A stretch of 64,000 bases of DNA from an uncultured bacterium. Its GTDB lineage: Bacteria > Auribacterota > JACPWU01. Shown piece by piece: positions 6,118 through 63,427 of this stretch (position 1 is the stretch's first letter; the number at the start of each line of letters is the position of its first letter). The notes beneath the pieces were generated by a model that was given only the letters and a program-made list of their open reading frames with translations, was not told where the DNA came from and searched no databases. The position numbers and the translations under genes were made by a program. The stretch lies in NCBI GenBank assembly GCA_964640155.1, contig CAZXEQ010000002.1, positions 322,342 through 386,341 on the forward strand. The letters run 5' to 3'.

Positions 6118-6199
6118 GAATCTTTTGTAAAGGTGGTTAATTCTAGTTTCAATTTAACCCTACGATCTATACCCTAATCCCTATTCCCTGCTTTTAAAT

Positions 6200-6284
6200 G
6201 GAGAGGTGCGTGAGCGGCTGAAGCGGCACGCCTGGAAAGCGTGTAAACTGAAAGGTTTCGGGGGTTCGAATCCCCCCCTCTCCG
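6200..6284 (+). tRNA. tRNA-Ser (anticodon GGA)
   Basis: Cloverleaf with long variable arm, anticodon loop cuGGAaa, T-arm GGTTCGAATCC; acceptor ggagagg/cctctcc. Confidence 0.85.
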
Positions 6285-6346
6285 AGATTTACTTCTATTT
6301 GGGACACAAATCTTATCGGATACTTAATGGAACTTGTCATTTCCTT

Positions 6347-12764: not shown

Positions 12765-12787
12765 ATTCTAAAATTTTTTGAATATAT

Positions 12788-12898
12788 GGTAGGGATTCGA
12801 AGGGTACCCGAGCGCGTCCTGTGGACGATGAAGCGAGGGACCCCGGCTCCGGAGGAACGAATGAAATGAGTGGGGTAGGAGGAATCCCACCCCTTCCG
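12788..12898 (+). repeat. tRNA-downstream element copy 1 (starts GGGATTCGAAGGG, ends with duplicate of tRNA-Ser(CGA) 3' end)
   Basis: Shares 5' motif and CCGGAG...AACGAA...TAGG...AATCCC 3' module with the three other copies; terminal ggaatcccaccccttccg repeats the tRNA 3' end. Confidence 0.5.
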
Positions 12899-13044: not shown

Positions 13045-13425
13045 ATGGAAGGAATGGTTACACGAAAGGTGGAATTAAGAGGAATTGGATTTTTTTCAGT
13101 ATTTAAGATTTTTTTCTCAATCATATTGTTTTTTTCATTAGTTTTTCTTATCCTGTTTGATCTTTTTGGCTTTCAAATTGTGGGGACTTTGGCTGGATGG
13201 ATAGGGGATATCAGACAGCTTTTTGTTGATTTGCAAACAAAGTTTCCAAGTATTTTTGATAACAAGATATTATTTTCTTTGTTTCAATCTTTGTTATTAG
13301 GACTTATTTTAGGGCTGTTTATTGGTATTGCAACAGGCATTTTCAACCTTTTTGTAGCTCTTTTAGGTGGATTGAGTATTAAAATTAGAGAGAAGACCCC
13401 CGAGAAAAAAACATCATATCTTTAA
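13045..13425 (+). CDS. hypothetical membrane protein
   Basis: 126 aa, strongly hydrophobic; no recognised motif. Confidence 0.4.
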   Translation: MEGMVTRKVELRGIGFFSVFKIFFSIILFFSLVFLILFDLFGFQIVGTLAGWIGDIRQLFVDLQTKFPSIFDNKILFSLFQSLLLGLILGLFIGIATGIFNLFVALLGGLSIKIREKTPEKKTSYL

Positions 13426-13520
13426 AACTAGGGGATGGGGAGTAGGGCATAGGGTTTAGGGGAGGTAAGTATGAAAGTATTTTATCCCTGAATTTTAAGC
13501 TCTACTCTCTATTTTTGTCG

Positions 13521-13594
13521 CGCCCGTAGCTCAGCTGGATAGAGCACTTGCCTACGAAGCAAGGGGCCACAGGTTCAAATCCTGTCGGGCGCAC
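13521..13594 (+). tRNA. tRNA-Arg (anticodon ACG)
   Basis: gcgcccgTAGCTCAGCTGGATAGAGC D-arm, anticodon loop cuACGaa, T-arm GGTTCAAATCC, acceptor pairing gcgcccg/cgggcgc. Confidence 0.85.
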
Positions 13595-13632
13595 GAATTC
13601 ACGAGTGCAATAATTACTTGAGTCATTAACGG

Positions 13633-13727
13633 CAGGATTTGAAGGGAGGGCCGGGTGGCCGACTTGTAGGTCGAAGACCGGAAGGCACCAAATCCTCTCT
13701 CCGGAGACGGGCATGCTGTCGGGCCCC
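13633..13727 (+). repeat. tRNA-downstream element copy 2 (shorter or degenerate)
   Basis: GGATTTGAAGGGAG...GGGTGGCCGAC motifs shared with copies 3 and 4; ends near a partial match to the tRNA-Arg 3' end (tgtcgggc). Confidence 0.4.
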
Positions 13728-14228: not shown

Positions 14229-14282
14229 GTTGTAAATTAGTTTTTTATTTCGAATTACGATATACGAGATACTATTTTTGAA

Positions 14283-14371: not shown

Positions 14372-14445
14372 AAGTTTATTGGTAGCTTTAAAGTTAGCGG
14401 AAAGCAGCTTGAGCAAGAGGTCCATGTCGGTTATTGGGATTCGAA

Positions 14446-14564
14446 GGGAGGCCTGACATAGCATAATGCAAATCATGCACTGCATGATTTGCGACTGTTA
14501 GGAGGGCCGGGTGGCCGACCGGAGTGAGTGTAACGAACGTAGGCGCCGAATCCCCCCCTCTCCG
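14446..14564 (+). repeat. tRNA-downstream element copy 3
   Basis: GGGATTCGAAGGGAG start, internal hairpin (gcaaatcatgca/tgcatgatttgc), GGGTGGCCGACCGGAGTGA module, ends with cgaatccccccctctccgaagttta duplicating the tRNA-Ser(GCU) 3' end and flank. Confidence 0.5.
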
Positions 14565-22014: not shown

Positions 22015-22030
22015 GTTTTGCTATAAAAAT

Positions 22031-22150
22031 ATATTCTTTAAGTAAGAAGCGGGTCCTGACGCTTGGCAGCCTCACCATACTTATGAAAAATTGCGCGCGG
22101 TGGGGCTTCCCCGCCAAGCGTCACCCATATCTATAAAGAACATACTTTTA
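22031..22150 (+). repeat. palindromic repeat element (RPE-like) copy A, intergenic folP-cdaA
   Basis: Aligns to the other six copies (gggtcctgac...aaaaattgcgcgcgg.ggggc..ccccgcc.agcgtcaccc); most diverged copy. Confidence 0.6.
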
Positions 22151-25335: not shown

Positions 25336-25409
25336 TACGTGATGACGTACTGTGAAAGAATTTATCAAACTAAACGCAGGACGAAATACGCATCACGCAT
25401 GACAAATGT

Positions 25410-26138
25410 ATGATTCATCTAGGCATTAATATTGATCATATTGCAACTTTAAGACAAGCTCGACAGGGAGTGGAACCAGATCCTGTATGGGCTGCTTCTA
25501 TTTGTGAACTTGCGGGAGCTTATAACATTACGGTTCATTTGCGTGAAGACCGTAGACATATTCAGTCTCGAGATTTGGTTCTTTTAAGAGAAACCGTTAA
25601 AAGTAAACTCAATCTTGAAATGGGAAATAATTCTCAAATTCTTCGTGAGGCTCTTGCAGTAAAACCTGATCAAGTGACTTTGGTCCCTGAACGACGAGAA
25701 GAATTGACCACAGAAGGTGGGCTAAATGTTATTAAACATCGGTCTTCTTTATTAAGTTCGATTCAAAAACTTCAGAAAAAAGGGATTGAAACGGGTGTTT
25801 TTATCGAACCAGATGAAGATCAGGTGAAGGCTTCTTCTGAGATAGGCGTGAGCTTTGTTGAATTTCATACAGGTCGTTTTGCAAATGCAAAAAATCTAAA
25901 AGTTCAAGAAAAGGAATTGATTTTATTGTGCCAGGCCGCTGAAGAAGCACATGGCTTAAATTTACATGTTCATGCAGGGCATGGGCTCAATTTTTTGAAT
26001 ATTCATCCCATCAAGAAAATGCCTTATCTTGAGGAGGTTAATATTGGACATGCTATTATCAGTCGAGCGGTATTTATGGGACTTCAAAATGCTGTTCAAG
26101 AAATGTTGAACCTTCTTCGTGTCCCTAGTCCATTATGA
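25410..26138 (+). CDS. pdxJ: pyridoxine 5'-phosphate synthase
   Basis: LGINIDHIATLRQAR N-terminus and EFHTG motif typical of PdxJ. Confidence 0.88.
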   Translation: MIHLGINIDHIATLRQARQGVEPDPVWAASICELAGAYNITVHLREDRRHIQSRDLVLLRETVKSKLNLEMGNNSQILREALAVKPDQVTLVPERREELTTEGGLNVIKHRSSLLSSIQKLQKKGIETGVFIEPDEDQVKASSEIGVSFVEFHTGRFANAKNLKVQEKELILLCQAAEEAHGLNLHVHAGHGLNFLNIHPIKKMPYLEEVNIGHAIISRAVFMGLQNAVQEMLNLLRVPSPL

Positions 26139-30875: not shown

Positions 30876-30998
30876 AAAGTGTGTACTTTTAAAAAAGTGG
30901 CAGGGCCTGACACTCGTCATCCCCACCGTGCTCATAAAAAATTGCGCGCGGCGGGGCTCCCCGCCGAGTGTCACCCGTATTATAAAGGACACACTTTT
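30876..30998 (+). repeat. palindromic repeat element (RPE-like) copy B, intergenic greA-pbpC
   Basis: Terminal inverted repeats aaagtgtgtactttt / aaaggacacactttt, internal GC-rich hairpin gcgcgcggcggggctccccgccgag. Confidence 0.7.
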
Positions 30999-31008
30999 AT
31001 ACATGCTA

Positions 31009-33210
31009 TCACTCAACATGAATATTCACTTTTGCTGAAGCGCCTGTTTCGTCTGTAACGTAAATCTCATGCAGGCCAGGTTGAGGAATCCAAAAAAGAG
31101 CTTTTTCTGGACGGGTTTTCCCTATGAGAAGCCCATTCACAAACCACCATCGCCAGGAATGAGGCGATCCTCCTATAGACTGAAGAGGTAGTTTTTGATT
31201 TTTTTGAAAAGAGGGGGCGTCTAAGAAAAATTTTTGATTTGAAGAAATAGAAGAAATGGTTAGTTTAGAAATATCTTTTTCAAGTTCAATAGATTTTGCT
31301 AAACCTTCGTCCTGGATTTGAGGCCATGGTTTATTTTTCGGCTTTAAGCAAGATAGAAGTTTTAAAGTCAAGGGTGCTGCCAAAGTTTGTCCAACTAATT
31401 CATGAGAGCCTTTCCCAAGAGAGTTTCCAAGCCATGTTACAAGTGTGTATTCATGTGTTACTGCTACACACCAAGCATCTTTGTGTGCACTGCTTGTGCC
31501 TGTTTTCCAGGCAGGATTAAATGGAATGGCTTCAGGACAAACAGCGTAAGTTCGTTTGGGATCACTTAAGGCATTCAGTACTTGCCAGCATGCTTTTTGA
31601 GATAATATATTTTGATGGTGTGAATAAAAGTGCGGTCCTTTAAAAAGTGGCGGGTCCTGCCACTCGTCAGCCCCAACGTGCTCACTAAAAGTTGCGCGCG
31701 ATGGGGCCCCCCGCCGAGTGTCACCCGCATCTGTAAAGGACACACTTTTATCTACAGGATTTACATTTTGTGTGGCAGTGTCAGTATTAGATGTTAAAAG
31801 AGGAATATAAGTGACAGGCAGATGAATTCCTCCTCGCCCCAGTGTTGCAAAAGCTTCTGCAAGTTCTATAGGAGAAGCCTCGGCTCCTCCTATAGCTAAA
31901 GAAAGGCCATATCGATCTGGAAATTGCTCCAGTCTTTTAAATCCTAAACTTTGTAAAATTCCAACTACGCGAGCGATGCCTATTTTAGAAAGTAAAATCA
32001 TGGCGGGGATATTTCGACTTTGAGCAAGTGCTTCTGCCGCACACATAAAGCCTCTAAAAGTATGATCAAAATTGCTAGGGGTGTAGCCCTCCCAGCTCAA
32101 AGGAAGGTCTTTTAAAATTGTTGTGGGGGTGCAAATTCCTGCTTCAAAAGCGGCTGCGTAAATAAATGGTTTTAATGTAGAACCTGTTGAATAGTAACGG
32201 TTGGATAAATCTAAATTATTTGCATCGTCACATAAATTAATCGAGGCCAAACACTCAGAAGTTTGTGTGTTTAAAAGAACAAGTGAAAGAGCGTTGATCT
32301 GAGAAGATTTTAACTTTTCGAATTCTTGTTTGGCTATGAGGGTTAACTGCTCTTGAATATCTTTATCTAAAGAGGTTTTAAATTTTCCTTGTTGAAATTT
32401 TTCCTTTAAGGTCAGTAAGATGGGCAGAATTCCTGATTTTTTTTCTTGTGGCAGAGCTTGCCATGTGGCTTGAATAGGTTCTTCAATAGCGCGTGCGTAA
32501 TCTTGCTCAGAGATCATTTTTTCTGATAACATTCGAAACAAAACGTGATTACGTCTCTTAAGTGCACGTTCTATAAAACGATCTGGGCGATAGCGATTGG
32601 GACTTTGAGGAAGGCCTGCCAAAAGGGCAGCTTGGCTTAAAGAAAGATTGCGACATGAAATTCCAAAATATCTCCAGCTTGCAGCACCTACCCCGATTAA
32701 ATTCCCTCCCAAAGGACATCGATTGAGATATTCTGTCAAAATTTCATTCTTACTCATTTTTCTTTCTAATTGATAAGCACGAATAGATTCAATCAGTTTG
32801 GATGAGAAAGTCCGTGGTTTTGGATAACGTAAATGTTCAACTTGCATGGTAAGAGTGCTTGCGCCACGTATGATTTTCATGGCTTTAAAATCTTGCCAAA
32901 GAGCAGCAGCAACGCCAATCCAGTCCACTCCATGGTGTTGATAAAAACGATGATCTTCGACGGCAACAATTGCTTTAAAAAGATAAGGGCTTATTTCTTC
33001 TTCTTTTAATGGAAAATACCATTCATTTTTTTCTGAAACAAAAGCCCCCAAAGGCTTTCCTTCTCGATCTTCTATCCAAAGGCTGGGTGGAGGTTTTGGA
33101 GTGGGAGGATAAGACCAGGAGTAAACTGCAATAGAAAACGAAATACAAATAAAACTGAATACGCTAATAATTCCCAGTATGAAAATTTTGAAAGAATGTT
33201 TAATGGTCAT
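31009..33210 (-). CDS. pbpC: penicillin-binding protein 1C (transglycosylase/transpeptidase)
   Basis: N-terminal TM, glycosyltransferase motifs (EDHRFYQHHGVD; RGASTLTMQ), transpeptidase STGSTLKP; start overlaps stop of upstream A2M gene. Confidence 0.88.
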   Translation of the reverse strand: MTIKHSFKIFILGIISVFSFICISFSIAVYSWSYPPTPKPPPSLWIEDREGKPLGAFVSEKNEWYFPLKEEEISPYLFKAIVAVEDHRFYQHHGVDWIGVAAALWQDFKAMKIIRGASTLTMQVEHLRYPKPRTFSSKLIESIRAYQLERKMSKNEILTEYLNRCPLGGNLIGVGAASWRYFGISCRNLSLSQAALLAGLPQSPNRYRPDRFIERALKRRNHVLFRMLSEKMISEQDYARAIEEPIQATWQALPQEKKSGILPILLTLKEKFQQGKFKTSLDKDIQEQLTLIAKQEFEKLKSSQINALSLVLLNTQTSECLASINLCDDANNLDLSNRYYSTGSTLKPFIYAAAFEAGICTPTTILKDLPLSWEGYTPSNFDHTFRGFMCAAEALAQSRNIPAMILLSKIGIARVVGILQSLGFKRLEQFPDRYGLSLAIGGAEASPIELAEAFATLGRGGIHLPVTYIPLLTSNTDTATQNVNPVDKSVSFTDAGDTRRGAPSRATFSEHVGADEWQDPPLFKGPHFYSHHQNILSQKACWQVLNALSDPKRTYAVCPEAIPFNPAWKTGTSSAHKDAWCVAVTHEYTLVTWLGNSLGKGSHELVGQTLAAPLTLKLLSCLKPKNKPWPQIQDEGLAKSIELEKDISKLTISSISSNQKFFLDAPSFQKNQKLPLQSIGGSPHSWRWWFVNGLLIGKTRPEKALFWIPQPGLHEIYVTDETGASAKVNIHVE
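31627..31750 (+). repeat. palindromic repeat element (RPE-like) copy C, in frame inside pbpC
   Basis: Reverse complement translates without stops as KSVSFTDAGDTRRGAPSRATFSEHVGADEWQDPPLFKGPHF within the PbpC ORF. Confidence 0.7.
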
Positions 33211-36200
33211 GAATGTGAATGGGTTGCAATTTTCATTGTTTCATTGTCACGACTGATGCTGTTAATTGAAATATCATACATGCATTCAGCTTTTACAGGG
33301 GGAACAGTAAAAGTTCCAGGAGTCACAGCCCTGGCTAGATAAGTATATTGTGCTTTCCCTTTGTCTAACATTTTTCCGTAGAGCACAAGACGATCATCAC
33401 GAATATCGATATGACTATCCATAAATGTAGTTTGAGTAGGGTCTTTGAGAATAGAAGCTGAAGTTGCAAGCCTTGGATTTTCAATTTCAAGTCCAGCGGG
33501 AAGCAAATCTTCAATGACCATATTGTCATAACCCAAAGGACATTCTAGATGTATCTCTACTTGTATCAAGTCTCCACTACAAATTTTATCTAGGGCGATT
33601 GCGTGTCCCTGTTGATCAAGATATCTTTTTCTCACACTTATCCCATGATCTTCATTTAAAGGAGGCTCTTTGGCAAGGCCTGTGATGCTCCATGCAACAT
33701 AGCCCTTTGTTTTTTCAGCTCCTGAGATTTTAACTGAAAATTCTTTCCCATTCAGAAATTTATTTGAAGAATTCCAGAGAAGAGAATCTCCATTCCCTGT
33801 TTCAGAAATTTTCTCTGTCCCCGCCCAAAGTTCGGCTGATGTAAAAGGTTCTCCAAAATCTGTTTCCTTTAAATAAGACCCCAGTGCAAGAAGAGCAAAA
33901 GCATGATCTTGCGTACTTTGCCATTTTTTTTCGCCGCCGGCTTGGGCAAGTTCTTTAACCAATTTGGGAAGGGCTGGATTTTGTGGATCAAGTTCAATCA
34001 GACTTTGAATTAAAATAGCTTGATCTCGAATAGGGGACCCAATGTTTCCAGATAGGTCTCTGTTTTGGCGAGGGTGAGGTAGATTCTGAGGAATTAACTT
34101 TAAGGCCAAATCTCGTCTGCCAGAATAAAGCCAGGCCAGGGCAAGATAAAAGCGAGTTGAAGGATGGATGCTAGAGGAGATAGAAGTTGGGAGAGTGGAA
34201 GGTCTTTGAAAAATATCTTCCAGACGTGACATCATGGATCTCTGGGGATATCCCGCTTTAGCAAGAACAAAACAGGCATAAGCCTGAATCTCTAAAATAT
34301 TGGGTTGATCAGAACTTTCGTTTAATAATTTTCGAACATAATTTAAAAGTCGATCGCGAAAATCAGTTGGAATAGAGAAGCCGGCGTTTTCTGCTTCGGT
34401 GATAAAATGTGTTGCATAAACACTGGCCCAGCTCCAGCTCTCAGTATAGCCAGGCCACATAGCAAGTCCCCCTTCAGCTGTTTGCATACTGATCAAACGA
34501 TTAAGAGCTGTTTCAACTCTTTGATGAATGTATTGAGTATTAAATGGTTCTGGGAAAATCTTCTCTCCTAGTTTTTGCAATCCAATGAGAGGAAAGGTGG
34601 TGCTAACCGTTTGTTCGGCACATCCATGGGGGTATTCATTGAGATAATCCAAAGCCTTTGTCAGATTTAAAGTGGGAAATGGAGTTACGTGAATATTCAA
34701 CTGTGTTGTTCCCTCAATCCATTTTTCTGGAATTCTGATTTTAAAATCTTGATGGGGTTTAAGGGTTGCATATCCTCCTTCAGAAATTGAAGGACAGGCA
34801 GGACGAATAGGGAATATGAGATTTTGCTGATATTCTTGTCCATTGAGTTGCGCTTTGATTTTAAGACGAGCTATTCCCATTTTATTCTTAGCTTTCAAAG
34901 GAATGGTGATCACGGTTTGAGCGTTATCGGGAATGGAGTTTGTAGTAAAATTGATTTTTCTTTCGGAGGAGTGTGGAAAATAAACAGGACTTTTATTGTC
35001 TAGTTCTATTGAGAGGTTAGCAATGCCTTCACTTCCCGTATGATTGAAAATGACAATCGGTATTTCAAAATGATCATTATTTGCAGCAAAGCGAGGAGTA
35101 GTACTTTGTAACATGAGAGGAGATTTAACAAAAATGGGCTTAGATGCTGATCCAAAAAATTTTTTAGAATGAGCAATGGCCATGACTCGCAATTGACCTG
35201 TGAATTCTGGAAGACGAAAATCAACTTTTACGTTTCCATTTTCGTCACAGCGAAGTACTTTTGAAACAAGTGCAACATTTTTCATACGTTGTATAGACAA
35301 TGGAGTTAAATGACGTGGCTCATAACCTCCATCTCCTCCCACCGAACTTTTAGGATTTATTTTTGGAATCTCTGGGAAAAGTTCTCCATAAAGATCTGAA
35401 ACAAATACGTTCAAAGCTCGATTTCGATGAAAGAATGAAAAAGGATCTGGGGGTGAGAAATTCGTGAGTTGAAGAATCCCTTCATCTACGATTAACAAAG
35501 TGACCCTTGCATTTTTAGCAGGTTTATTTTGAGGGGTTAAAACTTTTGCTTCAACACGGATTTTGTTTTTGGGCAGGATTTCTTTTTTTGTTTGAATCTT
35601 TATTTTCAGCTTTTGATCGTTATTGTTGATCGCAAGGCGAGTCACGCCAAAAGCACGATGGATTTTCCATGGAGCCTTGGAATGGACGGGCTGAATCACC
35701 GTCGCACTTACATAGGCATTGGGACGATAGCTTTCTAAAATATCAATCGGAATAGATATATGAGATTGTGTCATGGTCAGAACTTTGTGAAAGAGAACAT
35801 TCTCTGTTTCTATCGTTAAAAGAAGTTGCCCTGGGAAAGGACTGCGAACAATGACTTGCGCTTGACCTCCAACTTTCAAAGAGGACGAATATCTATTAAA
35901 GTGCGTCTTTTTAAAAAGAAGTGGGTCCTGCCGCTCGTCAGCCCCATCGTGCTCAGTAAAAGTTGCGCTCGATGGGGCCCCCCGCCGAGCGTCACCCACA
36001 TTTTTAGAATCATTTTTTAATTCTTTGCCCATAGGAATAATTTCAATTTGTAATTGCTCTGGGTTCTCTCGAGAGACTGAATCCTCCCAGCCATTTTCAC
36101 TGCTCACATAAAATCCATGTGAAGTGAAGCTGCCTGTTTGAGAATCTTTGATAGCAATCACATAAGACCCTTCACTGGGAGGAATGATTTCAAAATGTCC

Positions 36201-38948
36201 TTTCTCTTGTTCTAAAATTGCATAAGAAGAAGATGCTTTTTCCAGTATACGTGTTGAGTCATAATGATAGCTCCCATCGCGATAGGTCATGATATTGTTC
36301 CAAGTCTCACGAAAAAGTTGTATCTCCATTTGTTTCGAAATCTTGGCTATTTGCCCATGCCCAGAAACACATGCAATATCAAAAACATACGGAGAACCGG
36401 GCTGAGCTTTTTGATTTTGTTGAGGACGTATGCCGACATAATATGGAACAGTATCAATGAAAACTCTTTTTGTGGCACTGACAGCCCTACCGCCCATTTC
36501 TTGAACACTTCCCAGAACAGTTAATTGCCAGGGACCCGTATACGAGGGGGTTTCTTTTATAAGAGAGTTCGGGGGGTGATTGAGAAGAAGAGAAAGATCT
36601 ACTTTCCATTCACCTTTGCCTTTCTCATTTAATTTAATCTTAGGCGACTCAATCGATTGTCCTTGGGGAAGAATACCTCCAAGTGTTTTAAAAGCATTGG
36701 CAGAATCTGTGAAAGTCCATTCTTTCCAATGTTTGGGTTTGAATGGTGCAGGATCGAGACGACTTGAAAGTGTTGCATCTGTTCCTGAAGCAGGTTGTCC
36801 AAAAAGATAGTTTGCTGCAATATGAACTGAAAGAGATTGTGAGGATAAAGTATAGCGATCATGGCGAATATTTTTTAAATTTAAAGCAACTTTCATTCTA
36901 TCGGGAATAAATTCCTCAACAAAAAAAGAAGTTGTTCCAAATGTTTTAGCATCAGCATCTTTTGATTTTGGAAGGCCAATGGATACAGTCCAATTTCCAG
37001 TGGGAATATCTTGAGGTAATTTGACAGAAAGGTAAACCATTCCAGAACTGTCCACCTTGGCCATGTGTCCTTTCCAATTTCTCCCATCGGGCCTATAAAA
37101 TTGACACCAGACAGGAAATTCTTCGGGGGTACTTAAATGAGGCCCTCGAATGATTGCCCAGAGATGGACTTTTTCACCGGGTCTATAGGCTCCACGTTCA
37201 GAGTAGACAAAAGCTTCATAGGCTTTGGATGAATAAGGACTCCCAGAAATATCAAAATGAGAATAGGAAAGTTCGCTTGTTCTTAAATCTAACCATGTCA
37301 AATGGGCGGGCTCTGTGGCAGCGTTAAAATTTGCAACTACTACGACAGGTTTCTCATCGTTAGAGGTTTCAATGGTATTGATTTTAATAATACCATTTTC
37401 ATCAGAAATTCCTTCTCCCAAAAGTTGATTCTTATTGGAAAATAAGCGAATGCGTACATGCTCCATGGGTTTACCTGTACTTAAAGACAGAGTCCAAACA
37501 AAAAGACCATGAGGGAATCTCTTGGCCACTAAACCAATGTCAGATAATGTAACAACCGTTGTATCGGATAACTCCCAGGCATATCCTTGATTCTCATTCT
37601 CGGCTTTGATTTGAATTTCATAAACCCCATTTTGCTTGAGATTTTCAGGCAGGAGCTCATCCAAGGATAAATGAATATCCTGAACTTTATTTTTCTCCAT
37701 TTCTAATTTAAGAGATTTTTGTGCGATTACTTGACTAAAATGATGAAGACCCATCCATTGATTCTCATAAACCGTGTTTCTCCAATGGACAATATTATTC
37801 TCATACATTTTTGTGAGAGTGATTTGAATGTTTTGAACATTGATAGCGTGAGCTAGAATCATTCGATTCCCTTTAGCTCCCAAAAACCCATGATCCTGTT
37901 CAAACCACACAGAAGCCTTACGATCTGGGATAAAAACACTAAAGAGATCTTCCTGAGGATAATTTTTCGAATCATTTTTGATGCGAGGTGCATTTACTTT
38001 CAATGCATATCGGTTTCCAGGGATAAAATCTGCCTCAAGACTGACTCCAAACCATTCTCGAATCAGTGTGAAGGGTAAAATAGGTTCAATAGAAAGAATT
38101 TCTTTTAAAATTTCTATATCGACATCATTATTGAAATAAAGTTGCAGTCTAATTTTTCCTTTTGAAGAAGAATAAGGTTCTACTTTTGTAATCATTAAGT
38201 GGCGGTTAAGGGTCAATTGCGTTTCATAAAGATTGGTTAATCCTAAAGGCCCACTAATCCCACATAGTCCTTCTCGAATCCTTACAATCACTTGAAGATA
38301 AGAGGATATATTTTGATAGAGAAAAGGAGTGGGCTCTGTCATCACGCGTATCACATTTGCGGTTACGCCTTCATAAAGGCGAAAAGGGATTTTTTGATGA
38401 ACCAGAGATTCAATCTCCAGAAATTTTGCAACTTCAGTTGGAAGCATTTTGTCGTTAAATTCAATTTCAATCATAAACTGATTTTTTTCGTCAAAGGCTG
38501 CTTGGCGTACAGATAAAATTTGCAAGGCTGGGGTTTTGACGGTTGCAGAATACGACTGATTCAGTAAAAACCCTTCCTTGGACTTTAAAGAATGAAGAGG
38601 AAAAGTAAAAGTAAAGGCTGTTGCTTTGGGGAGGTCTTTCTGGGGTGTAAAAGTAAGCTTTCGAGTGTTCACCCATTCCCAATGTCCAGGGATGAGGTAA
38701 GACGCATCGCCTGAACTCTTGATGATGACTTTGGATGAAACATCTTCACAAACCATATCTAAATTAAATTCCCAGGATAAAACAGGCCGTGTTCCTGTCT
38801 CAATATTGTTTCCTGGGTTAAAGCGTTCTATTTTAAGAACATTGAGCGTTTTTAATTGATAAGCATGATGAAATGCTGCCCAGGCAAGAATATTTGTAAT
38901 TGCAAAACAAAAAACGGTTATCCAAAATCGTTTGTGTAACATGAACAT
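33207..38948 (-). CDS. alpha-2-macroglobulin family protein (bacterial A2M, thioester-containing)
   Basis: 1913 aa, N-terminal signal/anchor, thioester motif GCAEQ, large MG-domain architecture; genetically coupled to pbpC. Confidence 0.9.
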   Translation of the reverse strand: MFMLHKRFWITVFCFAITNILAWAAFHHAYQLKTLNVLKIERFNPGNNIETGTRPVLSWEFNLDMVCEDVSSKVIIKSSGDASYLIPGHWEWVNTRKLTFTPQKDLPKATAFTFTFPLHSLKSKEGFLLNQSYSATVKTPALQILSVRQAAFDEKNQFMIEIEFNDKMLPTEVAKFLEIESLVHQKIPFRLYEGVTANVIRVMTEPTPFLYQNISSYLQVIVRIREGLCGISGPLGLTNLYETQLTLNRHLMITKVEPYSSSKGKIRLQLYFNNDVDIEILKEILSIEPILPFTLIREWFGVSLEADFIPGNRYALKVNAPRIKNDSKNYPQEDLFSVFIPDRKASVWFEQDHGFLGAKGNRMILAHAINVQNIQITLTKMYENNIVHWRNTVYENQWMGLHHFSQVIAQKSLKLEMEKNKVQDIHLSLDELLPENLKQNGVYEIQIKAENENQGYAWELSDTTVVTLSDIGLVAKRFPHGLFVWTLSLSTGKPMEHVRIRLFSNKNQLLGEGISDENGIIKINTIETSNDEKPVVVVANFNAATEPAHLTWLDLRTSELSYSHFDISGSPYSSKAYEAFVYSERGAYRPGEKVHLWAIIRGPHLSTPEEFPVWCQFYRPDGRNWKGHMAKVDSSGMVYLSVKLPQDIPTGNWTVSIGLPKSKDADAKTFGTTSFFVEEFIPDRMKVALNLKNIRHDRYTLSSQSLSVHIAANYLFGQPASGTDATLSSRLDPAPFKPKHWKEWTFTDSANAFKTLGGILPQGQSIESPKIKLNEKGKGEWKVDLSLLLNHPPNSLIKETPSYTGPWQLTVLGSVQEMGGRAVSATKRVFIDTVPYYVGIRPQQNQKAQPGSPYVFDIACVSGHGQIAKISKQMEIQLFRETWNNIMTYRDGSYHYDSTRILEKASSSYAILEQEKGHFEIIPPSEGSYVIAIKDSQTGSFTSHGFYVSSENGWEDSVSRENPEQLQIEIIPMGKELKNDSKNVGDARRGAPSSATFTEHDGADERQDPLLFKKTHFNRYSSSLKVGGQAQVIVRSPFPGQLLLTIETENVLFHKVLTMTQSHISIPIDILESYRPNAYVSATVIQPVHSKAPWKIHRAFGVTRLAINNNDQKLKIKIQTKKEILPKNKIRVEAKVLTPQNKPAKNARVTLLIVDEGILQLTNFSPPDPFSFFHRNRALNVFVSDLYGELFPEIPKINPKSSVGGDGGYEPRHLTPLSIQRMKNVALVSKVLRCDENGNVKVDFRLPEFTGQLRVMAIAHSKKFFGSASKPIFVKSPLMLQSTTPRFAANNDHFEIPIVIFNHTGSEGIANLSIELDNKSPVYFPHSSERKINFTTNSIPDNAQTVITIPLKAKNKMGIARLKIKAQLNGQEYQQNLIFPIRPACPSISEGGYATLKPHQDFKIRIPEKWIEGTTQLNIHVTPFPTLNLTKALDYLNEYPHGCAEQTVSTTFPLIGLQKLGEKIFPEPFNTQYIHQRVETALNRLISMQTAEGGLAMWPGYTESWSWASVYATHFITEAENAGFSIPTDFRDRLLNYVRKLLNESSDQPNILEIQAYACFVLAKAGYPQRSMMSRLEDIFQRPSTLPTSISSSIHPSTRFYLALAWLYSGRRDLALKLIPQNLPHPRQNRDLSGNIGSPIRDQAILIQSLIELDPQNPALPKLVKELAQAGGEKKWQSTQDHAFALLALGSYLKETDFGEPFTSAELWAGTEKISETGNGDSLLWNSSNKFLNGKEFSVKISGAEKTKGYVAWSITGLAKEPPLNEDHGISVRKRYLDQQGHAIALDKICSGDLIQVEIHLECPLGYDNMVIEDLLPAGLEIENPRLATSASILKDPTQTTFMDSHIDIRDDRLVLYGKMLDKGKAQYTYLARAVTPGTFTVPPVKAECMYDISINSISRDNETMKIATHSHS
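35898..36010 (+). repeat. palindromic repeat element (RPE-like) copy D, in frame inside the A2M gene
   Basis: Encodes VGDARRGAPSSATFTEHDGADERQDPLLFKKTHF inside the A2M ORF, homologous to the peptide encoded by copy C. Confidence 0.65.
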
Positions 38949-39008: not shown

Positions 39009-39156
39009 TAAGTCCTCGGGCTTTTCACCGTCCTTTAGGATGAGGTAAGAAACGGGGCCTGCCACTCGTCAGCCCTACCGTGCTCATGAAAAATTGCGCG
39101 CGGGGCGGGGCTCCCCCCGCCGAGTGTCACCCGTATTGTAAAGGACACACTTTTTT
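39009..39156 (+). repeat. palindromic repeat element (RPE-like) copy E, long variant
   Basis: Core as other copies plus 5' extension gtcctcgggcttttcaccgtcctttaggatgaggtaagaaacgg shared with copy G. Confidence 0.7.
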
Positions 39157-39368
39157 ACACACGATCGGGAAAATTTTCTTAAAAACACTTTGAGATTTTC
39201 GAGAAGCAGGGTCAAGAAGAAAACAGAAGTGATTTATAAAATACGAAGTAACTCGCTGAAGGAGAGAAAGTAGGGATAAAATTTTTTTGAAAAATTATTT
39301 TACAATTAAAAAAACTTGAAGATTTTTCTAAATCTCAAGCTCGAAGTTTAAGGGATTTCTCAAAAGGA

Positions 39369-40508
39369 TTAAAGCTTTCTTACTTTGACATGAGCTTCTT
39401 CTAATAAGCGTAGACTTACATCCCCTACAGAATAGGCATGACTATAAACAACTTCTTTGATGCCACTATTGATAATCATTTTGGTACACATCAGACAAGG
39501 TGAAAAAGTAGAGTAAATTGTAGAGTCTTTAATGCTGACCCCATGATAAGCCGATTGTGTGATCGCATTTTCTTCAGCATGTGAGCATAAACATTCATCG
39601 AGCTGAGTCCCTTGTTGGGAGAAGCTGTTGCATCGTAGACAACCTCCATCCATACAATTCTTAGTACCACGGGGCGTTCCATTATAGCCCGTGGCAATGA
39701 TGCGTTTGTCTTTAACAATAACCGCCGCGACTTTTCGTTTGATACAATTGCTGCGTAAGGCAACTACTTTAGCAATTCCTATAAAATAATCATCCCAGCC
39801 AGGTCGACTAGAATTTGTTCCATATTTTTTTAATACCTCAATCACTTGTTCGTAAATTTTTTCAAGAGATCCTGCATTCATTAAAGAAGTATCTGAAATG
39901 GCTTGTGTTTGGTCTAGTTGTTGATGGTTAGGATTTTGAGATGAACGTTCTGCGTTTTCCAGACGTATAAATTCTTCTAGAGTCTGAGGGTCATTCTCTC
40001 TTCCTCGGGCTTTGATTCGCTCAAAACGTAGTTCCAGAGGAGCATCAATAAAAAGCAGAATAAAATCTTTTCTTTTCTTGAGGGATTTAGCTTCTTCAGG
40101 ATTGCGGATAGAATCTACAACATAATTTTTATCAACATCTAGAGTAGACGAAATCTTATCTGCTAAAACGGAAGGTCCAAACTGACTACGAAGTTCATTC
40201 CCAACTTGAATTAAATTTTCGCGTGTGATTTGAGTCCGTCGATTTTTGAGTTCATCTCGAAGAACATCCGAAAGCGAGGAATAAATAAACCCCCGTTGTT
40301 TTAAAAATTCTGCGATAACTCCTTTGCCTGAGCCATTTCTTCCAGTGAGTCCAATAATCACAAGATTAGAATCCTTTCTTATCAATTCTACTTTCTCGAT
40401 AGATTCTACTATGAGGCGAGTTGTTGGACAACCATTGTTTAAACTAAAAGCGAGAACGATTTTATAATTAAAAGTGTGTACTTTTAAAAAAGTGGCAGAG
40501 CCTGCCAC
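39369..40508 (-). CDS. P-loop nucleotide kinase / dCMP-type zinc deaminase fusion protein
   Basis: N-terminal IIGLTGRNGSGKG Walker A (CoaE/dNMP-kinase-like), C-terminal deaminase with CSHAEENAI and SPCLMCTKMI zinc motifs; the annotated Met start lies inside repeat copy F so the true start is uncertain. Confidence 0.7.
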   Translation of the reverse strand: MAGSATFLKVHTFNYKIVLAFSLNNGCPTTRLIVESIEKVELIRKDSNLVIIGLTGRNGSGKGVIAEFLKQRGFIYSSLSDVLRDELKNRRTQITRENLIQVGNELRSQFGPSVLADKISSTLDVDKNYVVDSIRNPEEAKSLKKRKDFILLFIDAPLELRFERIKARGRENDPQTLEEFIRLENAERSSQNPNHQQLDQTQAISDTSLMNAGSLEKIYEQVIEVLKKYGTNSSRPGWDDYFIGIAKVVALRSNCIKRKVAAVIVKDKRIIATGYNGTPRGTKNCMDGGCLRCNSFSQQGTQLDECLCSHAEENAITQSAYHGVSIKDSTIYSTFSPCLMCTKMIINSGIKEVVYSHAYSVGDVSLRLLEEAHVKVRKL

Positions 40509-40596
40509 TCGTCAGCCCCACCGTGCTCATGAAAAATTGCGCGCGGCGGGGCTCCCCCCGCCGAGTGTCACCCGCATATATAAAGTACACACTTTT
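40471..40596 (+). repeat. palindromic repeat element (RPE-like) copy F, overlapping the 5' end of the kinase-deaminase ORF
   Basis: Near-identical to copy B (aaagtgtgtacttttaaaaaagtggcag.gcctg...). Confidence 0.7.
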
Positions 40597-40831
40597 CTAC
40601 ACATCATCGCAAGAACTTCAATTAGAATATTTTAATTTTACTTTAATGATTTTTTAACCTTTCTACTGAGATAATGCCTCTGTTAAAAAAGGCAGCATTG
40701 TTTCAGAGATAAAAAAATCTTTTCTTCAAATAGGGGGTTATGGTATATTTTGCGCACCTTACTCATCATGTGGGATGATGAGAGGATGTAGTTCAAAGTT
40801 AATTATTTAAATCAAACCAAGGAGATCAGTA

Positions 40832-43325: not shown

Positions 43326-43475
43326 AAAAGTGTGTCTTCGGACTTTTCGCCACCTTTAGGATTATATAAGAAACGGGTCCTGCCACTCGTCAGCCCCACC
43401 GTGCTCATAAAAAATTGCGCGCGGTGGGGGGCCTCTCCGCCGAGTGTCACCCGTAGTGTAAAGGACACACTTTTT
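43326..43475 (+). repeat. palindromic repeat element (RPE-like) copy G, long variant
   Basis: TIRs aaagtgtgtc / aaaggacacac; 5' extension cttcggacttttcgccacctttaggat shared with copy E. Confidence 0.7.
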
Positions 43476-43580
43476 GCGCACGATTGATTTTCCTCATTGG
43501 TCCTCAAATTCTACAGTTCTGGTCCCTATGACGTGAGTATGCATAAGAAAAAGTTTGAGGGTATTTAAAATTCGGATAGA

Positions 43581-44224: not shown

Positions 44225-44277
44225 GTTTCTTTGTGCAGTAGGAAATTGCAAAGGAATCTCACAGACTTGAAGAGCTG

Positions 44278-44412
44278 ATGGGAGGATTTGAAGGGAGCTC
44301 CGACGCCTTTATGATGCTGATCATGCGGTGCATGATCAGCGACGTCTAGTCGGAGCGGGTGGCCGACCGGAGTGAACGAAGTGAACATAGGCGCCAAATC
44401 CCATCACCAGCT
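44278..44412 (+). repeat. tRNA-downstream element copy 4
   Basis: GGGAGGATTTGAAGGGAG start, long hairpin (gctccgac...gatgctgatcatgc-ggt-gcatgatcagc...gtcggagc), GGGTGGCCGACCGGAGTGA module, ends with caaatcccatcaccagctgtt duplicating the tRNA-Thr 3' end. Confidence 0.5.
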
Positions 44413-46002: not shown

Positions 46003-46084
46003 GGGCAGGTACCAAAGCGGCCAACTGGGCCAGACTGTAAATCTGGTGGCTATGCCTACGAAGGTTCGAATCCTTCCCTGCCCA
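46003..46084 (+). tRNA. tRNA-Tyr (anticodon GUA)
   Basis: Acceptor gggcagg/cctgccc, D-arm CCAAAGCGGCCAACTGG, anticodon loop cuGUAaa, long variable arm, T-arm GAAGGTTCGAATCCTTC. Confidence 0.8.
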
Positions 46085-46174
46085 TAAAAGTAGGGTTTAG
46101 GGCATAGGGATAAGGGTTGAGAGATACGTTTTTCTCTAAACCCTAGACCCTATACGCTAAGTCCTGAGTTTAAT

Positions 46175-46245
46175 GCGGGAGTAGCTCAATGGTAGAGTTC
46201 CAGCCTTCCAAGCTGGCCATGCGGGTTCGATTCCCGTCTCCCGCT
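46175..46245 (+). tRNA. tRNA-Gly (anticodon UCC)
   Basis: gcgggagTAGCTCAATGGTAGAG, anticodon loop cuUCCaa, T-arm GGGTTCGATTCCCG. Confidence 0.85.
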
Positions 46246-46304
46246 CGAAAAACTCGAGCAGGTGAGACGAGATGTATAAGGTAATATAAGCCCTGATTTT
46301 AACT

Positions 46305-46475: not shown

Positions 46476-47672
46476 ATGGCTAAGGAAAAATTTGAGAGAA
46501 AGAAACCACATGTAAACGTGGGAACGATTGGACACGTAGATCATGGTAAAACGACATTGACCGCAGCATTGACCAAAGTACTGTCAAAGAAGGGTCAAGC
46601 CAAAGAAATCACCTATGCCGACATCGCCAAAGGCGGAGTCGTGCGAGATGACTCAAAGATTGTAACCATTGCCGTATCACACGTAGAATACGAAAGCACC
46701 AATCGACACTATGCGCATATCGATTGTCCAGGACATGCCGACTATGTCAAAAACATGATCACTGGAGCAGCCCAAATGGATGGAGCCATTCTAGTGGTAA
46801 GTGCAACTGATGGACCCATGCCCCAAACAAGAGAACACATCTTATTGGCAAGGCAAGTCGGAGTACCTAACATCGTCGTATTCTTAAACAAATGTGACAC
46901 CGTAGATGATCCAGAACTATTAGACCTCGTAGAACTAGAAGTAAGAGAACTATTAACACAATATCAATTCCCCGGAGACAAAACTCCTATCGTCAGAGGA
47001 AGCGCATTAAAAGCACTACAGGGAGACACGAGCGAACTGGGAGAGCCATCCATTGCTAAACTACTAGAAGCATTGGACAGCTACATTCCAGAACCCAAAA
47101 GAGAAATCGACAAACCCTTCCTCATGCCCGTAGAAGACGTATTCAGCATCACTGGAAGAGGAACCGTAGCAACGGGAAGAATTGAAAGAGGCATCGTAAA
47201 AGTAGGAGAAACCCTAGAAGTCGTAGGACTCAAACCCACTAAAAACGTCGTCGTCACTGGAGTAGAAATGTTCCGAAAAGAACTAGACCAGGGACAAGCA
47301 GGAGACAACGTAGGAGCCTTGCTTAGAGGAGCAGAAAAAGACGACATCGAAAGAGGACAAGTCTTAGCGGCACCCGGAAGCATCAAGCCGCATACCAAAT
47401 TCAAAGCAGAAGTCTATGTCTTGAGCAAAGAAGAAGGAGGAAGGCACACACCCTTCTTCAATGGATACAGACCTCAATTCTACTTCAGAACAACGGATGT
47501 GACTGGAGTGGCGAACCTAGCAGGTGGAATAGAAATGGTAATGCCTGGAGACAACACGGCATTAGAAGTAGAGTTGATCAGTCCAATTGCAATGGACAAG
47601 GGCTTAAGATTTGCAATCCGAGAGGGAGGCAAGACCATCGGAGCAGGTAGAGTTACTGATATTATTGCGTAA
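46476..47672 (+). CDS. tuf: elongation factor Tu (copy 1)
   Basis: [11 protein letters not shown]1 motif, [12 protein letters not shown]; 398 aa; nucleotide-identical to copy at 62231-63427. Confidence 0.95.
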
Positions 47673-47872: not shown

Positions 47873-47964
47873 AAGCGTCGTTTGTTTCTCGCATTTTGTT
47901 TCGTTCAATAATTTTAGTCATAAAAACGAATTACGAATAACAACATACGAGAGACGGTTTTTGA

Positions 47965-48038: not shown

Positions 48039-48101
48039 GATATTAGAGGGTTAGAGGGCTTGAGTGGTTTTTAAAAATATTTTTATTTAAAAGGTTGAAG
48101 C

Positions 48102-62230: not shown

Positions 62231-63427
62231 ATGGCTAAGGAAAAATTTGAGAGAAAGAAACCACATGTAAACGTGGGAACGATTGGACACGTAGATCATG
62301 GTAAAACGACATTGACCGCAGCATTGACCAAAGTACTGTCAAAGAAGGGTCAAGCCAAAGAAATCACCTATGCCGACATCGCCAAAGGCGGAGTCGTGCG
62401 AGATGACTCAAAGATTGTAACCATTGCCGTATCACACGTAGAATACGAAAGCACCAATCGACACTATGCGCATATCGATTGTCCAGGACATGCCGACTAT
62501 GTCAAAAACATGATCACTGGAGCAGCCCAAATGGATGGAGCCATTCTAGTGGTAAGTGCAACTGATGGACCCATGCCCCAAACAAGAGAACACATCTTAT
62601 TGGCAAGGCAAGTCGGAGTACCTAACATCGTCGTATTCTTAAACAAATGTGACACCGTAGATGATCCAGAACTATTAGACCTCGTAGAACTAGAAGTAAG
62701 AGAACTATTAACACAATATCAATTCCCCGGAGACAAAACTCCTATCGTCAGAGGAAGCGCATTAAAAGCACTACAGGGAGACACGAGCGAACTGGGAGAG
62801 CCATCCATTGCTAAACTACTAGAAGCATTGGACAGCTACATTCCAGAACCCAAAAGAGAAATCGACAAACCCTTCCTCATGCCCGTAGAAGACGTATTCA
62901 GCATCACTGGAAGAGGAACCGTAGCAACGGGAAGAATTGAAAGAGGCATCGTAAAAGTAGGAGAAACCCTAGAAGTCGTAGGACTCAAACCCACTAAAAA
63001 CGTCGTCGTCACTGGAGTAGAAATGTTCCGAAAAGAACTAGACCAGGGACAAGCAGGAGACAACGTAGGAGCCTTGCTTAGAGGAGCAGAAAAAGACGAC
63101 ATCGAAAGAGGACAAGTCTTAGCGGCACCCGGAAGCATCAAGCCGCATACCAAATTCAAAGCAGAAGTCTATGTCTTGAGCAAAGAAGAAGGAGGAAGGC
63201 ACACACCCTTCTTCAATGGATACAGACCTCAATTCTACTTCAGAACAACGGATGTGACTGGAGTGGCGAACCTAGCAGGTGGAATAGAAATGGTAATGCC
63301 TGGAGACAACACGGCATTAGAAGTAGAGTTGATCAGTCCAATTGCAATGGACAAGGGCTTAAGATTTGCAATCCGAGAGGGAGGCAAGACCATCGGAGCA
63401 GGTAGAGTTACTGATATTATTGCGTAA
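62231..63427 (+). CDS. tuf: elongation factor Tu (copy 2)
   Basis: Identical in nucleotide sequence to 46476-47672 as far as I can read it; canonical fusA-tuf-rpsJ position. Confidence 0.95.

Follow-up and report, generated by a model that had tools for sequence, protein, structure and literature searches.

The spacer between the tRNA-Tyr and tRNA-Gly genes at positions 46085–46174 of the window (the whole 64-kb stretch of DNA analysed) contains a run of TAGGG-type units repeated every seven nucleotides, and it raises the question of whether such runs beside tRNA genes are telomere-like repeats, G-quadruplex (G4) elements, or parts of another structure. The original prediction had described three clusters of this kind, here called sites A, B, and C, as telomere-like G-tracts that recur specifically at tRNA loci, with a canonical G4 pattern at site A. 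All three sequences were present where it had placed them; a fourth array, on the minus strand at 46134–46159, had been missed and is the complement of site A. The explanation that we favour, with a probability of about 0.55, is that inverted pairs of heptamer repeats fill the spacers 5′ of tRNAs and fold as RNA hairpins of the REP type.

Heptamer arrays and neighbouring tRNA genes

The arrays, their pairing arms, and the adjacent tRNA genes were located as follows:

46091–46116, plus strand: G-rich 5′ arm of site A, with the units TAGGGTT, TAGGGCA, TAGGGAT, and AAGGG (array TAGGGTTTAGGGCATAGGGATAAGGG)
46134–46159, minus strand: complementary arm of site A, reading TAGCGTA, TAGGGTC, TAGGGTT, and TAGAG on the minus strand
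46085–46174, plus strand: predicted hairpin A, the whole tRNA-Tyr to tRNA-Gly spacer, with pairs running from 46085 to 46172
46003–46084, plus strand: tRNA-Tyr(GTA), the upstream neighbour of hairpin A
46175–46246, plus strand: tRNA-Gly(TCC), which begins next to the base of hairpin A
13429–13463, plus strand: G-rich 5′ arm of site B, with the units TAGGGGA, TGGGGAG, TAGGGCA, TAGGGTT, and TAGGGGA (array TAGGGGATGGGGAGTAGGGCATAGGGTTTAGGGGA)
13485–13516, plus strand: U/C-rich 3′ arm of site B, with the reverse complement TAGAGAG, TAGAGCT, TAAAATT, and CAGGGA
13520–13594, plus strand: tRNA-Arg(ACG), which begins next to the base of predicted hairpin B
6158–6190, minus strand: orphan array of site C, with the units CAGGGAA, TAGGGAT, TAGGGTA, TAGATCG, and TAGGG (the minus strand carries CAGGGAATAGGGATTAGGGTATAGATCGTAGGG)
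6199–6285, plus strand: tRNA-Ser(GGA), downstream of orphan array C

The units followed the consensus TAGGGNN, equivalent to GGGNNTA, with two variable positions each; GGGTTTA, GGGCATA, GGGATAA, GGGAGTA, GGGAATA, and GGGATTA all occurred. At site A the array begins after a gap of 6 nt from the end of tRNA-Tyr (46084); a fifth unit in degenerate form, GAGAG, comes after it at 46119–46123. The arm at 46134–46159, C-rich on the tRNA-sense strand, pairs with 46091–46123 in the predicted fold. The array of site B starts 4 nt past the stop codon of a 126-aa ORF (13045–13425) and lies 56 nt ahead of tRNA-Arg (13520). Its 3′ arm, which ends 3 nt short of that tRNA and pairs with the G-rich arm largely via G·U, looks in sequence like a set of decayed heptamers. 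Site C is separated by 8 nt from tRNA-Ser(GGA) (6199) and is C-rich on the tRNA-sense strand; at −41 to −9 of the tRNA it sits where A and B have their 3′ arms. No partner arm was found for it. None of the nine tRNA genes of the window, tRNA-Tyr(GTA) included, has an encoded CCA, and the GC skew was positive throughout.

The pentamer TAGGG alone was not enriched in the window (78 matches vs. 71 expected). When a period-7 array was defined as at least three in-phase units, four arrays were observed compared to 0.007 expected from 300 local shuffles, among which the maximum was one, so that the non-random occurrence of the motif was upheld. Each of the four comprised 3–5 in-phase units. Its description as telomere-like was not: telomere repeats form extended arrays of one unvarying unit at the termini of linear replicons, whereas the arrays found here have 3–5 units with two variable positions each and lie inside a 501,885-bp contig. 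A CRISPR-like array was also considered and dropped.

Predicted hairpins

On the plus strand, hairpin A was predicted at −36.8 kcal/mol (z −5.5) and hairpin B (13426–13519) at −41.1 kcal/mol (z −7.2), and in neither case was any of 200 shuffled sequences as stable. Shuffling arm by arm, which left each arm as G-rich or U/C-rich as before, gave z −5.6 for A and z −5.9 for B. The predicted stems comprise 30–37 bp on the tRNA-sense strand, with the base 0–6 nt from the end of the upstream gene and 2 nt (A) or 3 nt (B) ahead of the 5′ end of the next tRNA. Hairpin B consists of 23 Watson-Crick and 14 G·U pairs, and its minus strand folded at −13.8 kcal/mol vs. −41.1 kcal/mol for the plus strand. 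Because the complement folds weakly, hairpin B can exist only in RNA of the tRNA-sense strand or in single-stranded DNA. The arms are complementary by Watson-Crick or G·U pairing, of which the latter works only in tRNA-sense RNA.

At site C no hairpin was predicted on either strand (z +0.59), and a partner arm hidden in the upstream ORF was considered and dropped. We infer that the orphan array is the surviving 3′ arm of a former hairpin; the RNA-hairpin model alone covers five of the six cases, site C being the exception. Searches with Rfam covariance models at gathering and E-value thresholds returned no family: 46085–46174 had no match at all, and 13428–13518 gave only chance-level matches to miRNA-precursor models (E 0.9–4.6).

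The same G-tracts could instead act as a G4 element, in which four G3 tracts form an intramolecular quadruplex, in non-template DNA or in RNA, that affects how the neighbouring tRNA is transcribed or processed. Within the 64 kb, the canonical motif (four G3+ tracts with loops of N1–7) occurred at 13431–13462 and 46093–46116 and nowhere else, so that the G4 pattern holds by sequence at A and B and fails at C, where one loop is 11 nt long. Consistent with a quadruplex, the 4–5 units at A and B fit the four-unit preference of G4-forming heptameric repeats, and oligonucleotides of the related Xanthomonas/Nostoc class form G4s in vitro (PMC4692102). The predicted energies pointed the other way. Folded in isolation as G4s (ViennaRNA), the G-rich arms reached −8.4 kcal/mol at A and −12.1 kcal/mol at B, much less stable than the hairpins with which they compete, and the minimum-energy fold was still the hairpin when the G-quadruplex model of ViennaRNA was switched on.

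Comparison with a close relative

The comparison was made with one relative, represented by two short contigs (L129 and L221) of the Logan sample SRR22387960, in which RmuC is 85% and the 126-aa ORF 72% identical to those of the window. The Tyr-Gly spacer of L129 was predicted to form a full-length hairpin at −34.9 kcal/mol (z −4.7; minus strand −25.2 kcal/mol). It has the same number of units as the window, and its units 3 and 4 read TAGTG/CACTA where the window has TAGGG/CCCTA, which amounts to two compensatory double changes from G-C to U-A (GGG/CCC to GTG/CAC); all four units of its 3′ arm are of the CAC type. At the tRNA-Arg position, the L221 leader folds as a hairpin of ATGGGGTGTAGGGG...CTCTACACCCCAT (z −4.0) and is set apart from that of the window by an indel of 14 nt, equal to exactly two units. 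On the tRNA-sense strand, neither the Tyr-Gly spacer of L129 nor the region upstream of the tRNA in L221 contained a canonical G4 motif.

Between the window and this one relative, the hairpin and the heptamer phasing are thus conserved and the G4 motif is not. The G4 reading is further weakened by the manner of its loss, since the change of GGG to GTG in the L129 units, along with their partners, saved the pairing while destroying the G-tracts; neither orthologous site retains the motif on the tRNA-sense strand, and site C never matched it. With predicted hairpins at about −37 and −41 kcal/mol vs. G4s at about −8 and −12 kcal/mol, the quadruplex probably does not describe the structure formed, and a G4 element acting on the tRNAs appears to us quite unlikely. 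The modelled energies suggest that the hairpin, and not the G4, is the relevant structure.

The same double changes weigh against a heptad operator, in which a repeat-reading protein would regulate tRNA transcription by binding the heptads in duplex DNA. An analogue is the omega ribbon-helix-helix repressor of plasmid pSM19035, which binds heptads, and the sites studied here do offer contiguous heptads, direct and inverted, near gene starts. Site C fits such an operator in either orientation, and stretches of TACGA-type heptamers, which differ from the TAGGG arrays, run from −38 to −8 of tRNA-Ser(GCT). An operator of this kind is nevertheless highly improbable: the 5-nt core, TAGGG in the window and TAGTG in the relative, has changed jointly with the sequence it pairs with, site B still pairs as RNA even though its 3′ arm is degenerate as DNA, and the arrays do not lie at a consistent distance from the tRNA start (−90 to −57 vs. 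−41 to −9).

An intrinsic terminator or attenuator would likewise use the stem, combined with a U-run, to end transcription of the upstream gene or to damp read-through into the tRNA. AUUUUU follows hairpin B, the L221 hairpin, and both L129 hairpins, and B begins 4 nt past a stop codon. Hairpin A has no U-run after it, and nearly all tRNAs in the window share a U-rich 5′ leader, including those that have no hairpin. The 2–3 nt between hairpin and tRNA leave no room for a promoter, and the hairpin sites were unlisted in a consensus terminator scan. We therefore consider termination very unlikely.

The Gly-Thr spacer of L129 contains an additional inverted pair of TAGGG arms that is absent from the window. 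In the alignment these arms formed two separate indels, one on either side of a homologous centre, and for that reason they are better explained by growth or loss in place than by a single insertion of a mobile element. Their presence in one relative and absence in the other could by itself suggest the ends or remnants of a tRNA-targeting mobile element of the MITE or REP type, as could the richness of the window in small elements (a 7-copy MITE and an element at tRNA 3′ ends) and the GTAG ahead of some units, which we take to be reminiscent of REP heads. The two indels around a homologous centre are at odds with that origin, as are the unrelated internal sequences of the A, B, and L129 elements, the lack of target-site duplications, and length changes in whole 7-nt units, and we find it hardly plausible at all. 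MITEs have multiple copies with a conserved internal sequence, terminal inverted repeats, and target-site duplications, and are present or absent as single indels; the hairpins contrast in this with the 7-copy family of the window, which is a true MITE.

Under a non-adaptive origin, slippage, together with correction of quasi-palindromes by template switching, would generate paired arrays that are tolerated without function in the few stretches flanking tRNAs, which are non-coding, highly transcribed, and negatively supercoiled. Turnover between the relatives was indeed fast (the 14-nt indel, the changed units, and the Gly-Thr arms present or absent), site C is an orphan, and units have been homogenised within an arm, as in the 3′ arm of L129 (four of four CAC-type). 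Heptamers are moreover the commonest class of long simple-sequence repeats in prokaryotes and are ascribed to polymerase slippage (PMC4679880, PMC4692102). Template switching, however, gives perfect Watson-Crick palindromes, and it leaves unexplained a 37-pair stem with 14 G·U pairs and about two disruptions that folds in a single strand only. Both orthologous positions also kept their hairpins while the sequence turned over, and in our own rough binomial calculation at least 14 of 16 changes preserved pairing, which has P ~1e-4 if at most 40% of changes would do so. This covariation rests on two sequences, where arm homogenisation or template switching could mimic compensatory change without selection, and strand-biased C-to-T mutation pressure could likewise yield G·U pairs without selection. 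On balance we regard a purely non-adaptive by-product as unlikely.

The search was also extended to organisms with EF-Tu 89–99% identical; where their DNA was examined, they had the rpsL-rpsG-fusA-tuf copy without tRNAs. One EF-Tu relative (L225), an organism of 59% GC, has a Tyr-Gly spacer of 14 nt.

Association with tRNA genes

In the window, all three array loci lay in tRNA-adjacent intergenic DNA, which makes up 1.5 of the 5.9 kb of intergenic sequence (P = 0.018), and all three lay in tRNA 5′ leaders (1.15 kb; P = 0.0075); both values are nominal and were obtained post hoc, from three loci in 64 kb. A lag-7 scan of intergenic regions of at least 54 nt gave five regions with at least 14 matches of 21, four of which were tRNA 5′ leaders (Fisher's exact P = 0.015); the TACGA-type run ahead of tRNA-Ser(GCT) was among these four. 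The specificity for tRNA loci that had been proposed thus stands in so far as the arrays occur only beside tRNA genes in the window, and it extends no further than three loci in 64 kb.

Sequences from elsewhere served to place these values. Distant metagenome loci anchored on NusG, with a best identity of only 66% and used as a background rate, contained no TAGGG array and one TAGTG array in 546 kb with 105 tRNAs. In an Auribacterota MAG (JAYRIK01), the eight loci sharing the MITE of the window (52 kb) had no arrays, nor did they have tRNAs; the MITE search also returned three chance matches besides these loci. When viral contigs were scanned for three consecutive TAGGGNN units, at least 120 loci were found, and none among the matches listed had a tRNA within 200 nt, so that TAGGG arrays are not tied to tRNAs as a general rule. 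Taken together, the observations are only suggestive of a tentative, lineage-specific association. It may instead stem from the tendency of the repeat class as a whole to lie at gene ends between co-directional genes (PMC4692102).

Two other kinds of small element were noted in the window. One is a 7-copy MITE family. The other occurs after four tRNAs and is a duplicate of the 3′ part of the tRNA, beginning at the T-loop; an internal segment is complementary to the duplicated copy and covaries with the identity of the tRNA, and a relative has an empty site. This element had no Rfam match, and its core gave 25 matches in viral contigs, all of them chance matches in GC-rich DNA with none near a tRNA, several resembling coding sequence. 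It looks more unusual than the heptamer hairpins.

Proposed formation and role of the hairpins

According to the favoured explanation, that of heptamer inverted pairs folding as REP-type RNA hairpins in tRNA spacers, a G-rich arm followed by its complementary C/U-rich arm would occupy the entire spacer directly 5′ of the tRNA. Length changes by whole 7-nt units would arise by replication slippage, and the complementarity of the arms would be kept by selection on the RNA, possibly aided by template switching between them. If the spacer is co-transcribed with the tRNA, as we assume, RNase Z and RNase P would cut it out as a block, in keeping with hairpin bases only 2–3 nt ahead of the tRNA 5′ ends and with tRNA genes that lack an encoded CCA. 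By analogy with REP-type spacer stem-loops, the hairpin may insulate the tRNA from the upstream RNA while also shielding the 3′ end of the latter, and by a similar analogy the long duplex would be a plausible substrate for RNase III.

A more ambitious version, to which we attach a low probability, holds that the hairpins are a selected, lineage-specific signal in pre-tRNA, with a duplex occupying all of the leader or spacer, so that RNase Z/RNase P or RNase III would release it as a discrete, stable spacer RNA, and with genome-wide targeting to tRNA leaders. If this were true, they would be a tRNA-dedicated subclass and provide the first function for G-rich heptameric repeats, which occur in large numbers in certain bacteria and have been put forward as G4 elements, with no known function. 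Should the link to tRNA leaders hold genome-wide, it would suggest that the repeats take part in pre-tRNA processing in a candidate phylum about which little is known; failing that, the arrays would be an ordinary member of a known repeat class. The two relatives form a natural comparison, in which the hairpin was kept via compensatory and G·U changes and the G4 motif was lost, and this argues that constraint acts on the stem-loop and not on the G4, at least in the paired form.

Comparison with known repeat systems

The functional analogy drawn above comes from the REP/BIME elements of enterobacteria and pseudomonads, which are transcribed, imperfect palindromes of 20–40 nt with a conserved GTAG head, are mobilised by RAYTs, and have roles in protecting upstream RNA 3′ ends and in differential expression within operons. 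They resemble the hairpins described here as intergenic stem-loops between co-directional genes and differ in that REPs are not built of tandem heptamers. The Escherichia coli sponges 3′ETS-leuZ and ITS-metZW are stable RNAs from transcribed spacers of tRNA operons and are alike in the proposed form, that of a spacer freed by tRNA-processing nucleases as a discrete RNA. Unlike the hairpins, they act by pairing of a short single-stranded seed with small RNAs.

Among long heptanucleotide repeats of prokaryotes, the STRR heptamers of cyanobacteria form another group beside the TAACTGA repeats. The latter are direct repeats reported from marine Beggiatoaceae, cyanobacteria, and Bacteroidetes (MacGregor, 2015; PMC4679880). 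The arrays of the window share with such repeats a short intergenic form of 2–6 copies, restriction to a lineage, variability among relatives, and an origin ascribed to slippage. TAACTGA-type repeats differ in being mostly direct, in lying just upstream of start codons, and in not being G-rich; inverted arms are rare among them, with one indirect repeat among the 170 sets of BOGUAY (PMC4679880).

The closest match is the class of G-rich heptameric repeats described by Rehm et al. (2015; PMC4692102), with the units GGGAATC in Xanthomonas and GGGGA(C/T)T in Nostoc. These repeats are intergenic and transcribed, prefer four units, and have no known function, and G4 formation is the favoured reading for them; the G-rich strand lies just past stop codons or, in antisense, just ahead of genes (PMC4692102). 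Unit number varies among species, with position and type kept, and in Xanthomonas 70–75 convergent inverted pairs per genome could form stem-loops, for which a competition between hairpin and G4 was raised as possible without a decision (PMC4692102). Genomes with this class contain roughly 180 arrays or more; the repeat count of Xcc, a Xanthomonas campestris strain, is 186 (PMC4692102).

The arrays of the window have head-to-tail 7-nt units with a G3–4 tract, about four units per array, and an intergenic location between co-directional genes, as in that class. Their sense G-rich arms start 6 nt past tRNA-Tyr (A) and 4 nt past a stop codon (B), and the antisense-G arrays (C and the 3′ arm of A) lie 8–16 nt ahead of a tRNA, with a limit of 50 bp in the class. 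Site A is a convergent inverted pair, and the two-unit indel relative to L221 changed the length with the position kept. The local array density of 47–62 per Mb (in 64 kb) is comparable to the ~37 repeats per Mb of Xcc, calculated with a genome size of 5.08 Mb. The arrays are thus another example of the known G-rich heptameric simple-sequence repeats, in the inverted-pair form and of a different sequence family: the unit is GGGNNTA rather than GGGNATC or GGGGA(C/T)T, the host is of low GC and probably Auribacterota-related, and all loci lie in tRNA leaders or spacers, whereas no link to tRNA was reported for the class (the word tRNA occurs zero times in PMC4692102). They differ from it also in that the hairpin is here predicted to out-compete the G4, and that it was kept where the G4 motif was lost.

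Elements at tRNA 3' ends

Immediately 3' of four tRNA genes in the window lay an element of 100–190 nt, present as a short variant after tRNA-Arg and with further copies in L149, a contig of a relative.

Copies of the tRNA-3'-end element
12765-12898, after tRNA-Ser-CGA
13595-13703, short variant, after tRNA-Arg
14372-14564, after tRNA-Ser-GCT
44225-44412, after tRNA-Thr-TGT
L149 4890-4985 and 5883-6042, further copies

Three of the four window copies terminated in a direct repeat of the 3' end of their own tRNA, running from the T-loop onward for 17–26 nt; the short copy had only CAAATCCT in common with tRNA-Arg and then continued as a tRNA-Ser 3'-end-like sequence. The conserved core read CGGGTGGCCGACC(N)GGAG..GAACGA..TAGGCGCC. 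The 5' motif matched the T-arm copy in reverse complement and varied with the identity of the tRNA, the motif/copy pairs being GGGATTCG/CGAATCCC for Ser, GGATTTG/CAAATCC for Thr and Arg, and GGCGGAATCGA/TCGATTCCGCC for Gly in L149. Folding of the alignment showed compensatory pairs in the closing helix formed by these two parts and in an inner hairpin.

The site after tRNA-Thr-TGT was empty in L129, a short contig from a close relative. The genes adjoining the element as cargo in relatives were a GIY-YIG gene in L221, a second short contig of the relative represented by L129, and an AbiJ-like ORF in L149. No Rfam family matched the element, and all of its matches in viral sequences were at chance level. 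This could be a miniature element that integrates at tRNAs, its attachment site being folded or guide-like.

Analysis of L221 also showed a gene in the position of tRNA-Arg (1007-1160), of which only about 30 nt matched the tRNA of the window, followed by divergent, structured, GC-rich sequence as far as the contig end. Neither Rfam nor alignment recovered a complete tRNA in this interval; it could be a tRNA gene that contains an intron or one that has been replaced.

tRNA flanks and gene order

CCA was not encoded in any of the window's nine tRNA genes; most had a U-rich leader whose last nucleotides were TTTTTGA, TTTTAAA or TTTTGTC, and GAAAA followed several of them. The leader GAGTTT of tRNA-Gly was complementary to its trailer AAACTC. 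The gene order was Thr-Tyr-Gly-Thr-tuf-Trp-secE-nusG-rplKAJL-rpoBC-rpsLG-fusA-tuf-rpsJ. Over at least the first 300 nt (46476-46775 and 62231-62530) the two tuf genes were 100% identical, suggesting that tufA and tufB have undergone gene conversion.

Short-period repeats and paired arrays

Further heptamer-periodic stretches, with a TACGA-type core, were present at 14245-14275, 47925-47958 and 25381-25408. One (TTTCGAA TTACGAT ATACGAG ATACTAT TTTTGAA) reached the 5' end of tRNA-Ser(GCT) in phase, and similar stretches lay upstream of tRNA-Trp and of an ORF at 25410. They may represent repeats of the promoter region or else arrays that have decayed. Additionally, a G-tract pair of period 8, TTAGAGGG TTAGAGGG, was located at 48043-48058, starting 5 nt 3' of tRNA-Trp; no C-rich partner for it was found ahead of secE.

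Paired heptamer arrays like those of the window's hairpins were also detected in some IMG/VR viral contigs (44% and 70% GC), laid out as a G-rich heptamer array, a core of 40–80 nt and an inverted C-rich array.

Paired-array elements in viral contigs
L028 2514-2617 and 4691-4794
L047 3703-3781 and 4797-4875
L118

The core was almost identical between the L028 copies, which sat between co-directional genes. No tRNAs were found close to the viral elements.

A seven-copy MITE

Seven copies of a MITE, about 130 nt long and bounded by terminal inverted repeats (AAAAGTGTGTCCTTTA...TAAAGGACACACTTTT), were present in the window, and the MITE was also found at eight loci of the Candidatus Auribacterota MAG JAYRIK01. 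This sharing offers the strongest indication of the taxon behind the window.

MITE copies and MITE-bearing ORFs
22029-22135, MITE
30880-31010, MITE
31630-31760, MITE
35901-36031, MITE
39032-39166, MITE
40475-40607, MITE
43353-43486, MITE
31009-33210, minus strand, PBP1C-like gene
33207-38948, minus strand, bacterial alpha-2-macroglobulin gene

Two of the copies lay in frame within these large ORFs, at inter-domain linkers, an arrangement reminiscent of the Rickettsia palindromic elements.
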